DNA of 64,000 bases from Patescibacteria group bacterium (lineage in GTDB: Bacteria; Patescibacteriota; Minisyncoccia; Moranbacterales; UBA2206), in NCBI GenBank assembly GCA_030837625.1, contig JAUPKF010000001.1, forward strand, positions 23,496 to 87,495, written 5' to 3'. The notes below the pieces were generated by a model. It searched no databases. It had not been told where the DNA came from and saw only the letters and a program-made list of their open reading frames with translations. The translations under genes and the position numbers were made by a program. Of the stretch, positions 16,046-18,854 are shown one piece after another. Numbering within the stretch: position 1 is the first letter of the stretch; the number at the start of each line of letters is the position of its first letter.

Positions 16046-16977
16046 AGTCAGTACGAGTTGCAGCATGCGAATAGCGCACTACGAACGCGCCCATGCGAAT
16101 AATAATTATTGAAAAAACAGCAGTAATTAAAAAGCGACACAACCTTTGAAAACACTTGTAACAAAAATACATCTTTGCGTGTAATATGATTGCATGCAGG
16201 GATGTGTTTTTTTGCTTGCCCCGTGCGAGCGTAGCGAGTTTACGGGGTTCGTGAAAGGCAAGAACTTTGACAATTTAATGAAATATAGTCTAAATCTTTA
16301 TTGGTTCGAGATCCCTCGACTCGTCCGACGATTACGTCGAACTCGCTCGGGATGTGATTTCGTGGCCAAATCAAAGATTTGGACGAAATCACAATTTTTT
16401 GCGATTAGTCCTCGTCCCGCTTCGGCGGGACAAATAGAGTCTATTCAAAATCAAGAATTTATATTCTTTATATAACATTTTTTGAGAGTTTGATCCTGGC
16501 TCAGGATGAACGCTGGCGGCGTGGATAAGGCATGCAAGTCGCATGGGTTAGACCCATGGCAAACGGGTTAGTAATACATAGGAACGTACCCCTAAGTCGT
16601 GAATAACCTGGAGAAATCCAGGATAATACACGATATGTTCTACGGAATAAAGATTTACCCCGCACCAAATGCTTGTGCAATTTGGTTGCGACTAAATGTT
16701 AAAGTTGTACTTTTGAAGTACGAACATTTGGTGCGGGGTTTATCGCTTAGGGAGCGGCCTGTGTCCTATCAGCTTGTTGGTGAGGTAAAGGCTCACCAAG
16801 GCTATGACGGGTAGGGGGCGTGAGAGCGTGACCCCCAACATTGGAACTGAGACACTGTCCAAACACCTACGGGTGGCTGCAGTCGAGAATATTCCACAAT
16901 GGACGAAAGTCTGATGGAGCGACGCCGCGTGCGGGAAGAAGGCCCTTGGGTTGTAAACCGCTTTTAATCGGGAAGAA

Positions 16978-17337
16978 ATTGTGTCTCACTATTGTTTGGT
17001 GAAAAAATGTTATGTTTCTTTTTATCTTTTTGATTGAGAGGAGGTAAAAGATGAGCTTGTCAGGAAATTATATTTATGAGGTTCAAGCAGAATATCCTGT
17101 CGAATGCTACACTTGTTCCGGCAGAGAGGACAAGGATGAATGTAGAAAAAGGCGACGAGAAACCCAGCTCAAAATACGTGACAGCTTCATTTTTGTTCCC
17201 AAGAGAGAATGCTCTTGCCGGGCAAAACTTCCGTATCCCCTTCATAAAGGAGAGTAGCGATGCGGGATTGCGGAACCTCGCGGTCTCGCAATCTCAATTC
17301 TTAAAGTAAAAATTACAAAACAATAGTGAGGCACAAT
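16978..17337 (+). other. Intervening sequence 1 in the 16S gene, about 360 bp, in the V3 region (E. coli roughly 455-480). It is bracketed by a 17-nt inverted repeat and contains a 68-aa Cys-rich ORF at 17051-17257.
   Basis: Conserved 16S sequence stops at 'gggaagaa' and resumes at 'ttgacggtaccg'. The insert begins 'attgtgtctcactattg' and ends 'caatagtgaggcacaat', which are exact reverse complements. The internal ORF 'MSLSGNYIYEVQAEYPVECYTCSGREDKDEC...' has a plausible 'gaggaggtaaaagATG' ribosome-binding site. Confidence 0.7.
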
Positions 17338-18008
17338 TTGACGGTACCGATTGAATAAGAGGTTGCTAACTCTGTGCCAGCAGCAGCGGTAATACAGAGA
17401 CCTCAAGCGTTATCCGGATTTATTGGGCGTAAAGAGCATGTAGGCGGATATGTTAGTCAGACGTCAAATCTTCGAGCTTAACTCGAAAACTGCGTTTGAA
17501 ACGGCATATCTTGAGGAAGTGAGAGATCAATGGAACGTATGGTGTAGCAGTGAAATGCGTTGATATCATACGGAACACCAAAGGCGAAGGCATTTGATTG
17601 GCACTTTTCTGACGCTGAGATGCGAAAGCGTGGGTAGCGAATGGGATTAGATACCCCAGTAGTCCACGCCGTAAACGATGCATACTAGGTATTAGGAGAA
17701 TCGACCCTCCTAGTGTCCAAGCTAACGCGATAAGTATGCCGCCTGGGAAGTACGAGCGCAAGCTTAAAACTCAAAGGAATAGACGGGGATCCGCACAAGT
17801 GGTGGAGCATGTGGTTTAATTCGACACTAAGCGAGGAACCTCACCAGGGCTTGAAACCTAGCTGCATTGTATGGAAACATACAAGCCTTCGAGGGTGCTA
17901 GGCAGGCGTTGCACGGTCGTCGTCAGCTCGTGCCGTAAGGTGTTCTGTTAAGTCAGGAAACGAGCGCAACCCCTATCGCGTGTTACAAGTGTCACGCGAG
18001 ACTGCCCA

Positions 18009-18133
18009 GAACTTTGGGCGTTAGCCCAAAGTAGTAGCATGTATCATGTAGAATGTATTATGTATGCAATTTTATACATTATACTTCCTACAAAATACTT
18101 TATACTACTTTGTGAGCGATAGCGAACAAAGTT
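18009..18133 (+). other. Intervening sequence 2 in the 16S gene, about 125 bp, between the 'gagactgcccag' and 'tgggaggaaggcgggg' blocks (E. coli roughly 1130-1140).
   Basis: AT-rich insert flanked by the inverted repeat 'gaactttg' ... 'caaagttc'. The insert opens with its own hairpin 'ctttgggcgttagcccaaag'. Confidence 0.6.
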
Positions 18134-18854
18134 CTGGGAGGAAGGCGGGGATGACGTCAGATCAGCGTGGCCCTTTGACGCCCTGGGCAACACACGTGCT
18201 ACAATGGCCGAGACAAAGGGTTGCCAAGCCGCAAGGCGGAGCTAATCCCAAAAACTCGGTCTCAGTTCGGATTGAGGTCTGCAACTCGACCTCATGAAGC
18301 CGGAATCACTAGTAATCGTGAATCAGCTATGTCACGGTGAATACGTTCTCGGATCTTGTACTCACCGCCCGTCATACCAAGAGAGTCGGTAATACCCGAA
18401 GATCACGTTTCAAAGCGTGAGCCACGGTAGGATCGATAATAAGGGTAAAGTCGTAACAAGGCATCCGTAGGGGAACCTGTGGATGGATCACCTCCTTTCT
18501 AGGGAGAATTTGGTAATAACCGAGAGTACTTCACGTTAAGACGCATAGGGTCAAACCTAGCGTTGTGAAGTATGGTTGTTATCCGCTGGTCGACCCCGAT
18601 GCAAATCGGGGAACAGCAATGCCTAACAGAGCTAACAGAATCTGTAGTAAGTTTTGTACAGCTTACGGTAAACTCTTATAGGACTAATCGCAAAAAATTG
18701 GGATACTATAAAATGAAAACACCTTGAATGGTGTTTTTGTCGTTTTCTCCTTGGGAATGGTTCATTCGGTTGACTGACCTGGCATAAAAATGTTAGCTTT
18801 TAGTTGGGCAGAACTTTGACATATAAATGCGTTATTAGATGAGGGAGGCAGTTT

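Follow-up and report, generated by a model that had tools for sequence, protein, structure and literature searches.

In a metagenome-assembled genome of Patescibacteria (CPR), the 16S rRNA gene carries three hairpin inserts, which are probably intervening sequences (IVSs) of a functional 16S gene that is unlinked from the 23S gene. By analogy with known bacterial IVSs they would be excised by an RNase III-type reaction, and the 68-aa reading frame inside the largest of them (ORF68) would be fortuitous or decaying. Coordinates refer to the window, i.e. the whole stretch of 64,000 nucleotides that was analysed; related 16S loci are denoted by labels such as L090.

The 16S rRNA gene and its three inserts

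The window holds one full-length bacterial 16S gene, which matched Rfam model RF00177 over model positions 1-1533 with 1376 bits (gathering score 50 bits). Its 2021 nt (the model has 1533 positions) agree with a preliminary description of this DNA, which had put the gene at about 2.0 kb with expansions in three places including V2. The gene and the elements within and around it are:

16388..16412, + strand: 5' arm of the pre-16S processing (leader-trailer) stem, 25 nt, 96% complementary to 18680-18704
16478..18498, + strand: complete 16S rRNA gene, 2021 nt (RF00177)
16654..16742, + strand: helix 10 (V2) IVS, an 81-nt hairpin (16658-16738) with TTTA on either side (Rfam, inverted repeat, fold z-score)
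16976..17339, + strand: IVS1 on the helix 17 (V3) stub, 364 nt with its terminal stem (Rfam, 22-bp stem, fold z-score)
17051..17257, + strand: ORF68, an orphan of 68 aa inside IVS1 (list of open reading frames)
17261..17290, + strand: 13-bp GC-rich hairpin in IVS1 (17261-17273 / 17278-17290), 3 nt past the ORF68 stop codon
18005..18138, + strand: extended helix 40 (Rfam, inverted repeats, fold z-score, alignment with L090 and L074)
18680..18704, + strand: 3' arm of the pre-16S processing stem, pairing with 16388..16412
18713..18750, + strand: terminator-like hairpin and T-run (consensus scan, a pattern match: 11-bp stem, then CGTTTTCTCC)

The 16S gene is complete and looks functional, as judged from its full length and from the compensatory pairs present in the 530-loop pseudoknot; the anti-Shine-Dalgarno (anti-SD) sequence at its 3' end is intact. 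Alignment to a reference, which the preliminary description had proposed as a check, was carried out with RF00177 and with E. coli rrsH and placed the three insertions at helices h10, h17 and h40. With respect to the Rfam model they amount to 85 nt instead of 3 (h10, around model position 210), 348 nt instead of 7 (h17, around 458) and 122 nt instead of 3 (h40, around 1160). In the numbering of E. coli rrsH the sites correspond to about 199-218, 453-479 and 1161-1175, and all three fall exactly on surface helix tips.

The inverted repeats that had been said to bracket the inserts are real at all three sites. The ends of an IVS are expected to pair over about 20 bp or more, so as to offer RNase III a substrate. 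For IVS1 the 25-nt repeats 16976-17000 and 17315-17339 are 92% complementary and include a continuous stem of 22 bp (16976-16997 / 17318-17339). At h10 the 25-nt repeat 16652-16676 / 16720-16744 contains 14-15 perfect bp. The extended h40 has an outer repeat (18005-18023 / 18120-18138) and an inner one (18027-18065 / 18074-18112), giving a 12-bp base and a 39-nt inner repeat. In the predicted fold each insert is a long hairpin that stacks coaxially on its host helix. Compared to 100-200 shuffled sequences the fold z-scores were -7.2 (h10), -5.9 (IVS1 on h17) and -9.6 (h40), and 0 of the shuffles folded as well as the real inserts.

We took an rRNA gene as unlinked if the first 1.5 kb or so after the 16S contain no 23S gene. 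Annotation of the 64 kb window at the Rfam/tRNA level returned no 23S, 5S or tRNA gene, and neither 23S nor 5S was found within 45 kb downstream or 16 kb upstream of the 16S gene; the 6.2 kb that follow the 16S gene of L090 also lack a 23S gene. The proposed separation of rrs from rrl is thereby supported, and unlinked rRNA genes have already been published for Patescibacteria (bioRxiv 10.1101/705046). The leader-trailer stem brackets the whole 16S gene, with a 5' arm that is partly conserved in L121 and L122, and is directly followed by the terminator-like hairpin. The interval of about 350 nt that had been noted between the 16S 3' end and the next gene thus houses the 3' arm of the processing stem and this hairpin. 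The putative terminator suggests that rrs is transcribed without a downstream 23S gene.

Turnover of the inserts and the fate of the transcript

An IVS is extra sequence at a helix tip that relatives lack. L090, whose 16S is 94% identical to that of the window, has no insert at h10 or h17, and neither has L021; the h10 site is empty in L074, L077 and L071 as well. At h10 the window exceeds the empty L090 site by 85 nt. The preliminary description had IVS1 replacing the V3 hairpin, but h17 is already a stub in this lineage, as seen in L090, and the insert extends this stub. In the set of Patescibacteria 16S genes with a common 515 region, an h17 insert of at least 60 nt was present in 4 of the 74 measurable sites, and the h40 span was at least 100 nt in 9 of 84.

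Inserts at the same three sites as in the window were found in L121 and L122, contigs from two different JGI metagenomes that are about 96% identical to the window in the mature rRNA. Their h10 insert (168 nt) is unrelated to that of the window. Their h17 insert keeps both terminal stems (27 nt in the 5' one) and the GC hairpin: window positions 17261-17300 are 97.5% identical to both contigs, while nothing between the 5' stem and the hairpin can be aligned, and the two contigs have about 190 additional nt on the 3' side of the hairpin. Since the stems are kept around an unrelated interior in two independent metagenome contigs, the inserts are not an assembly artefact. Conserved processing stems around a free interior are the pattern that would be expected of an IVS.

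At h40 the boundaries had been set at 18009-18133. The AT-rich hairpin insert seen there is borne out, but the base of the extension (18005-18025 / 18116-18138) is common to relatives, its basal ~30 nt being conserved in L090 and L074, so that only about 90 nt (IVS2, ~18026-18115) are specific to this genome.

In relatives the h17 site also hosts protein-coding cargo, namely a 23S rRNA-intervening-sequence protein in L077 (PF05635, E = 3e-24) and a GIY-YIG protein in L048 (E = 4e-15). Copying of IVSs between helices of one gene is shown, by nucleotide identity, for two relatives: the h6 and h17 copies of L074 are 95.4% identical over 153 nt, and the h10 and h40 copies of L122 are 84.5% identical over 116 nt. 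IVS modules are furthermore common to different lineages. For the three IVSs of the window no further copy was found in the window, in 120 related 16S loci or in phage genomes, and no detectable relative outside L121 and L122; mobility is for this reason shown only for the IVSs of relatives. Two short exact matches to outside sequences, an 18-mer in IMG/VR (L128) and a 23-mer in a metagenome contig (L123, within a DnaB gene), had no extended similarity and were discarded as chance. A GIY-YIG cassette bracketed by inverted repeats lies 1 kb downstream; its homologue is located inside the h17 IVS of another lineage.

Freely replaced interiors within conserved stems, together with the two-helix copies in relatives, suggest that the inserts are mobile passengers dependent on processing and not structural additions. 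Each IVS would be transcribed within the pre-16S rRNA, where it would lengthen its host helix as a long near-perfect duplex. RNase III would cut these duplexes during maturation and the ends would not be religated, so that up to four fragments, roughly 175, 235, 670 and 365 nt long, would stay associated as the mature 16S rRNA. The inserts themselves may be selfish or neutral passengers with fast turnover that can be copied between helix loops. A six-frame translation of the 64 kb window contained no RNase III signature motif.

The preliminary description had left the choice between IVS-type excision and retention as extra helices while rejecting a group I or II intron. Its rejection of an intron holds (see below) and the IVS is the best fit, while retention stays as an alternative that we consider rather unlikely. 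According to this alternative the inserts are expansion segments, i.e. extra surface helices where CPR lost h10 and h17 and a longer h40, in an unfragmented rRNA. The position of all three sites on surface helix tips and the coaxial stacking agree with it, and the sites coincide with helices lost from CPR ribosomes: h6, h10 and h17 are missing from CPR 16S rRNAs and cluster on the ribosome surface (PMC9297842). Also the inner hairpin shows a compensatory change between the window (GGGC/GCCC) and L121 (GCGC/GCGC), and the basal h40 extension conserved in several relatives agrees no less with a retained helix than with an excised one. However, interiors that cannot be aligned between genomes so similar in their mature rRNA, as well as the empty sites of close relatives, argue against retention, and protein-coding cargo at the same site is hard to square with a structural role. 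Moreover, Tsurumaki et al. (2024, PMC11270868) cite Brown et al. as finding CPR rRNA insertions removed from transcripts. The same paper gives insertions of at least 100 bp for 48% of CPR 16S genes and proposes the non-intron ones to be RNase III IVSs.

The reading frame inside IVS1

The frame of 68 codons that had been described within IVS1, with GGAGGT upstream, is present; the motif (17040-17045) lies five bases before the ATG. The weight that had been placed on this ORF and "its own" ribosome-binding site could not be upheld. ORF68 most likely represents a fortuitous or decaying reading frame and not a conserved gene. Its codon log-likelihood ratio of -0.09 (0.36 ± 0.14 in real genes) is below that of every 68-codon chunk of real genes and resembles off-frame sequence, and ORFs of 77 and 61 aa, neither with a Pfam match even at E <= 10, overlap it in two other frames. 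The GGAGGT says little because SD sites are nearly absent from the genes of this genome (2 of the 40 long ORFs of the window); shuffled ORFs gain an SD match at about 5%, the same rate as the ORFs of the window. In the minimum-energy fold the motif is paired with 17227-17232 at a pairing probability above 0.9.

ORF68 is an orphan: searches of 5.8 billion clusters and of 1.84 billion representatives (exhaustive phmmer for the latter) returned only the self-match. No Pfam family was matched at E <= 0.01, and up to E <= 10 a single chance-level match appeared (PF01749 IBB, E = 0.087; 13.8 bits where the cut-off is 23.8). The statement that the ORF is not a LAGLIDADG protein was confirmed and extends to GIY-YIG and 23S_rRNA_IVP (PF05635), none of which matched ORF68 in Pfam even at E <= 10; tblastn of IVS1 in any frame found no remnants of GIY-YIG or IVP cargo at E <= 10. 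A degenerate GIY-YIG domain, considered by eye from a YIY...YTC spacing, was rejected for lack of Pfam support and of any BLASTP alignment to the L048 GIY-YIG protein at E <= 100. The single-sequence AlphaFold2 model of ORF68 had a pLDDT of 50. The contig index has no gene call for ORF68.

In L121 and L122 the h17 interior holds a different frame, ORF72 (72 aa), for which the search of 5.8 billion clusters also gave only the self-match. ORF68 is absent from the homologous insert of these closest relatives: a Smith-Waterman alignment of the two proteins was no better than shuffles (p = 0.23). A homology of ORF72 to the overlapping 77-aa ORF of the window, likewise suspected by eye, was dropped (best tblastn E about 1). 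The distance from the stop to the conserved GC hairpin is exactly 3 nt for ORF68 and ORF72 alike.

It is distinctly unlikely, though arguable, that IVS1 is a cargo element in which the stems and the GC hairpin serve as scaffold, RNase III frees a short mRNA, and ORF68 (ORF72 in L121 and L122) is a real lineage-specific gene. The filling of a variable interior by unrelated 68-72 aa ORFs with the same stop position speaks for such a gene, as do the known IVS cargo genes that L048 and L077 bear at this site. The combination of an ORF of at least 68 aa with an SD-like site was obtained in just 18 of 5000 shuffles, and low codon scores are also found for genes of the window of likely foreign origin (GIY-YIG 0.03, ORF108 0.09). 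Against a cargo gene stand the orphan state and mutual dissimilarity of ORF68 and ORF72, the missing Pfam family, the off-frame-like codons with the overlapping frames, the low pLDDT, the rarity of SD sites, the pairing of the GGAGGT and the 7% of shuffles in which an ORF of at least 68 aa arises on the IVS1 strand. An extended version appears more doubtful still: here the h17 insert would be a modular scaffold whose conserved stems and GC hairpin flank an exchangeable small-ORF cassette (ORF68 or ORF72), RNase III would free a short mRNA, the strongest promoter of the cell would drive the expression of orphan micro-proteins, and the downstream GIY-YIG cassette would belong to this element class as a free copy.

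Relation to known intervening sequences and introns

The preferred reading, RNase III-type IVSs in a functional 16S gene, has its model in the excised IVSs of bacterial 23S rRNA (h25 and h45 of Salmonella, Leptospira and Coxiella) and of the 16S rRNA of Helicobacter and Campylobacter (PMC4990558, PMC3335488). As in the window and its relatives, these occupy helix tips, have an AT-rich interior and a terminal stem of about 21-25 bp (24 bp for the 16S IVSs of Helicobacter and Campylobacter, PMC3335488), occur sporadically among close relatives, show homology across different rRNA sites and occasionally contain an ORF (S23p/PF05635) of doubtful expression. H. fennelliae has one IVS at about position 175, whereas the 16S gene of the window has three, in h10, h17 and h40. 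Furthermore ORF68 does not belong to PF05635, and excision in the window would follow by analogy.

Closer in phylogeny are the non-intron insertions reported for the 16S genes of CPR bacteria (Tsurumaki et al. 2024, PMC11270868, and Brown et al. 2015 as cited there), which come from the same phylum as the window. They also reside in a single-copy unlinked gene, sit at stem-loop tips where conservation is low and match no intron model; most are short, and GIY-YIG or 23S_rRNA_IVP ORFs occur in some of them, as in our relatives L048 and L077. Since insertions with and without ORFs are thus published, the novelty implied for an ORF-bearing insert does not hold. In the scheme given there the h17 insert of the window, with its orphan, Pfam-less ORF, would class as "uncharacterized". 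In contrast to those insertions, the three of the window have sequence relatives only in L121 and L122. The sections of that paper covered here describe neither conserved stems around a variable interior nor a gene with paralogous copies in two of its helices.

LAGLIDADG-bearing group I and II introns, known from positions ~1400 and ~1506 of CPR 16S genes, likewise enlarge the genes of relatives, with intron-type inserts of this kind near 1400 and 1506 in L021, L077, L121 and L122. The window lacks inserts at these positions, and its own have neither an intron core nor a homing endonuclease and lie in variable instead of conserved rRNA regions. That they are assembly chimeras, or self-splicing introns so divergent that the models miss them, is highly improbable, even though introns of both groups are frequent in CPR 16S genes (PMC11270868) and Logan contigs from the same samples are interrupted at the 3' end of the 16S gene: no intron model matched 16640-18140 at E <= 1 with permissive filters and none reached its gathering score, the sub-threshold Rfam matches were only generic miRNA-precursor hairpins, inserts of 85 and ~90 nt are too short for group I or II and all three are simple hairpins at helix tips of low conservation instead of in conserved cores, the insertion sites and IVS1 stems recur in two independent assemblies, and the junctions continue the host stems as perfect helices. 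The Logan contigs, found via exact flanking proteins, are short and identical to the window, and end at the 16S borders, short of the IVSs.

Hairpin inserts in 16S genes are already well documented for CPR/Patescibacteria, such that the window adds a further case and leaves the current understanding of CPR rRNA unchanged. It provides a well-resolved example of a CPR 16S gene in which several hairpin inserts are tolerated precisely where lost helices have left stubs. Annotation is confused by such inserts: the public record has an ORF call within this rRNA gene. The 515F site carries the mismatch C526A, which is compensated by G505U; owing to this mismatch and to the length of 2.0 kb, genes like this one escape amplicon surveys.

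The 16S rRNA gene and its surroundings

An Rfam scan of the whole 64 kb window at the gathering threshold yielded a single match, the bacterial SSU rRNA model RF00177 (1376 bits, model positions 1-1533). In the cmscan alignment to this structure model the sequence far exceeded the model at three sites, which were assigned to helices using a MAFFT alignment of the window 16S with E. coli rrsH. This confirmed the preliminary description of a gene expanded at three places. The features of the region are:

Features of the 16S region (window positions unless stated otherwise)
16478-18498, plus strand: 16S rRNA gene (RF00177), 2021 nt
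model position ~210: h10 insert, 85 nt vs 3 in the model, E. coli ~199-218
model position ~458: h17 insert (IVS1), apical part, 348 nt vs 7 in the model, E. coli ~453-479
model position ~1160: h40 insert, 122 nt vs 3 in the model, E. coli ~1161-1175
16652-16676 / 16720-16744: h10 inverted repeat
16976-17000 / 17315-17339: IVS1 inverted repeat
18005-18023 / 18120-18138: h40 inverted repeat, plus an inner 39-nt pair
17051-17257, plus strand: ORF68, 68 aa, with GGAGGT at 17040-17045
16388-16412 / 18680-18704: leader-trailer stem around the whole 16S, 25 nt, 96% complementary
18713-18750: terminator-like hairpin and T-run directly 3' of the leader-trailer stem, consensus match only

The inverted repeats reported to bracket the inserts are real and were found at all three sites. 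Compared to dinucleotide shuffles, the inserts with their flanks gave z-scores of -7.2 (h10), -5.9 (h17) and -9.6 (h40), and no shuffle folded as well. For IVS1 a continuous 22-bp stem (16976-16997 / 17318-17339) was predicted. The inserts exist and lengthen their host helices as long duplexes.

The proposed separation of rrs from rrl was borne out: Rfam models detected neither 23S nor 5S genes in the 16 kb upstream or the 45 kb downstream of the 16S. Likewise, no 23S gene was found in the 6.2 kb 3' of the 16S of L090, which is the closest of the relatives whose downstream sequence is long enough. Unlinked rRNA genes are typical of Patescibacteria and have already been described (bioRxiv 10.1101/705046), such that the arrangement here is the typical one of the phylum. 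ARAGORN found no tRNA genes in the window. The long ORFs lie nearly all on the plus strand, and the GC skew is positive across the window. Upstream of the 16S are genes for a seryl-tRNA synthetase, an ORF6N-domain protein and a family-1 glycosidase; downstream follow a 108-aa hypothetical protein, an 84-aa GIY-YIG protein and a DpnI-like endonuclease.

The 16S leader (16200-16475) is highly structured, with several GC-rich hairpins (e.g. CCCGT...ACGGG at ~16220-16247, others at ~16310-16360) and a GCGAGCGTAGCGAG-like motif resembling IVS motifs of the related loci L003, L074 and L077. In the 530-loop pseudoknot, G505-C526 (E. coli numbering) is replaced by a compensatory U-A pair (17364 and 17385). 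The universal 515F primer is mismatched by the change at 526, which at least 120 Patescibacteria species have in common. The metagenome contigs L121 and L122 additionally carry A506-U525.

Empty sites, shared stems and variable interiors

A scan of one genome per GTDB species with a lineage-specific version of the 515 region provided 120 loci, nearly all from Patescibacteria, in which insert sizes were measured as distances between conserved anchors. Median sizes were 16 nt for the h17 spacer and 47 nt for the h40 region. Of 74 measurable genes, 4 had an h17 spacer of 60 nt or more; for the h40 region, 9 of 84 genes reached 100 nt or more. Closest to the window were L074, L090, L021, L077 and L071, with identities over the 666-nt block 17340-18005 of 95.6% (L074), 93.8% (L090) and 91.3% (L021).

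In the alignment with L090 the h10 and h17 sites are empty, and helix 40 is ~30 nt longer than usual with the same base as in the window, leaving about 90 nt (18026-18115) as the window-specific part of the h40 region. The inserts are dispensable in close relatives. Given the empty h17 site of L090, helix 17 is already a stub in this lineage and IVS1 sits on it. Tsurumaki et al. 2022 (PMC9297842) showed that h6, h10 and h17, helices that lie side by side on the ribosome surface, are missing from CPR 16S rRNAs. It is exactly on these stubs that the inserts in h10 and h17 of the window and in h6 of L074 are located. Similarity of the window's inserts to those of the 120 loci or to other parts of the window was not detectable.

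A metagenome scan with the 23 nt just 5' of IVS1 returned two contigs, L121 and L122, from different JGI metagenomes. Outside the inserts their 16S is ~96% identical to the window, and the same three sites are occupied by inserts. At h17, the 583-nt insert of these contigs has a 5' stem identical to window positions 16976-17002, a 13-bp GC hairpin in common with the window (17261-17300, 97.5% identical) and a shared 3' stem, around an interior that could not be aligned. The h10 and h40 inserts of the two contigs bear no relation to those of the window. Insert interiors can change freely, whereas the stems of IVS1 are retained. Since independent assemblies reproduce sites and stems, an assembly chimera is ruled out. 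Overall, the preliminary description of the region was accurate.

The reading frame inside IVS1

A reading frame with an upstream GGAGGT is present in IVS1 as described, and ORF68 is identical to an annotated protein of the NCBI MAG 'Patescibacteria group bacterium'. The emphasis placed on this frame is, however, unsupported. ORF68 matched nothing but itself, both among 5.8 billion 90%-identity clusters and among the 1.84 billion representatives searched exhaustively with phmmer. The suggested profile search returned no Pfam family at E <= 0.01; with the limit raised to E <= 10, the sole addition was PF01749 (IBB) at chance level (E = 0.087, 13.8 bits vs a 23.8-bit cut-off). In place of ORF68, the homologous IVS in L121 and L122 contains an unrelated 72-aa frame (ORF72), which is an orphan as well. 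The codon log-likelihood ratio of ORF68 is -0.09 vs 0.36 ± 0.14 for 68-codon chunks of real genes, none of which is as low, and 17.5% of off-frame chunks score at least as high as ORF68. ORFs of 77 and 61 aa overlap it in two other frames, an ORF of at least 68 aa arose on the same strand in 7% of IVS1 shuffles, and the AlphaFold2 single-sequence model had a pLDDT of 50.

The argument that the frame has its own ribosome-binding site fails as well. A 5-mer Shine-Dalgarno core precedes 2 of the 40 long ORFs of the window, the same rate at which shuffled ORFs gained one (18/365, ~5%), and the GGAGGT is predicted to be paired with 17227-17232 (probability >0.9). On the other side, the stops of ORF68 and ORF72 both lie exactly 3 nt 5' of the conserved GC hairpin, a shared spacing that counts as one point for a real cassette. 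We consider it very unlikely that ORF68 is a functional gene. That a conserved-stem IVS scaffold carries exchangeable small-ORF cassettes expressed from pre-rRNA is likewise considered very unlikely.

Judged by the window ORFs, Shine-Dalgarno sites are nearly absent from the genome: regions upstream of the 40 long plus-strand ORFs are A/T-rich, while the 16S 3' end still keeps CACCTCCTT. Among the few ORFs led by such a site is the 108-aa hypothetical (18855-19181) directly downstream of the 16S.

Probable intervening sequences, and copying in relatives

As had been proposed, the inserts are not group I or II introns as far as these can be recognised: no such Rfam model matched at gathering score, nor when filters were made permissive and E <= 1 was allowed, and sub-threshold matches were to miRNA-precursor models only, i.e. 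generic hairpins. Like classical rRNA IVSs, the window's inserts have a terminal duplex of at least 20 bp, an AT-rich interior, a helix-tip position and a sporadic occurrence among close relatives; in Helicobacter and Campylobacter, too, 16S IVSs have been reported, with terminal stems of 24 bp (PMC3335488). In other lineages the h17 site carries, according to profile matches, classical IVS cargo: a PF05635 23S rRNA-intervening sequence protein in L077 (E = 3e-24) and an 86-aa GIY-YIG protein in L048 (E = 4e-15). The inserts are not a new phenomenon and belong to the known non-intron insertions of CPR 16S genes. Tsurumaki et al. 2024 (PMC11270868) give insertions of at least 100 bp for 48% of CPR 16S genes, confine GIY-YIG ORFs to non-intron insertions, report 23S_rRNA_IVP ORFs in 16S insertions, and suggest that a class of insertions that are short, uncharacterised and not introns may represent RNase III IVSs. 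They also cite Brown et al. 2015 for the removal of insertions from transcripts.

The IVS-type reading of the preliminary description is the best supported, with excision by RNase III itself being presumed. As parts of the pre-16S transcript, the inserts would be cut out by RNase III and the ends left unligated, such that the 16S would be held together in up to four pieces. A scan of the 64 kb window gave no RNase III motif. Retention of the inserts as expansion segments in the 16S is a serious rival, though an unlikely one; the best candidate for retention is the base of the h40 extension, which is conserved.

Related 16S genes have inserts at further sites. L021, L077, L121 and L122 contain 450-970 nt inserts at the ~1400 site with visible LAGLIDADG-like ORFs, that of L077 with a group II D1-D4 Rfam match, and L121 and L122 an additional LAGLIDADG-bearing insert of ~840 nt near position 1506. 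The window's 16S is free of both. The 317-nt helix-40 region of a further Patescibacteria 16S gene, that of L115, contains a tRNA-like structure of unassigned identity called by ARAGORN (4748-4828, minus strand). Its anticodon loop is unusual, and its T-arm is of the GGTTCGATTCC type.

Judging by sequence identity, hairpins have clearly been copied around in relatives. L074 contains one 153-nt element in both h6 and h17 (95.4% identity; reverse complement 4894-5048 and 5382-5534), and in L122 paralogous inserts occupy h10 and h40 (84.5% over 116 nt; reverse complement 4957-5124 and 6621-6767). This two-helix occupancy points to IVS copying within one gene. Across lineages, a 54-nt double-hairpin module, GTCAT-GCTGAA...TCAGC-ATCTAGAT-CCTGAAAC...TCAGGATGAC, is common to the L121 h17 IVS (positions 31-84) and the h40 IVS of L069 (7850-7903), a distant genome from the Magasanikbacteria, with 85% identity between the two copies. 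The L121 h17 IVS also has an AT-rich tail that matches the L021 h40 IVS (83% over 65 nt).

The 84-aa GIY-YIG gene (19470-19724), ~1 kb downstream of the window 16S, is bracketed by a perfect 17-nt inverted repeat (19430-19446 / 19709-19725), the 3' arm of which overlaps the stop codon. The unit 19430-19725 folds as a hairpin-bracketed cassette (z = -5.65). The encoded protein shares 51% identity with the GIY-YIG ORF in the h17 IVS of another Patescibacteria 16S (L048), where the architecture is the same. Possibly, the unit is an IVS-type cassette that exists as a free copy. Immediately after it lies the gene of the DpnI-like methyl-directed restriction endonuclease (19817-20608; PF06044, 2.5e-80, and DpnI_C).
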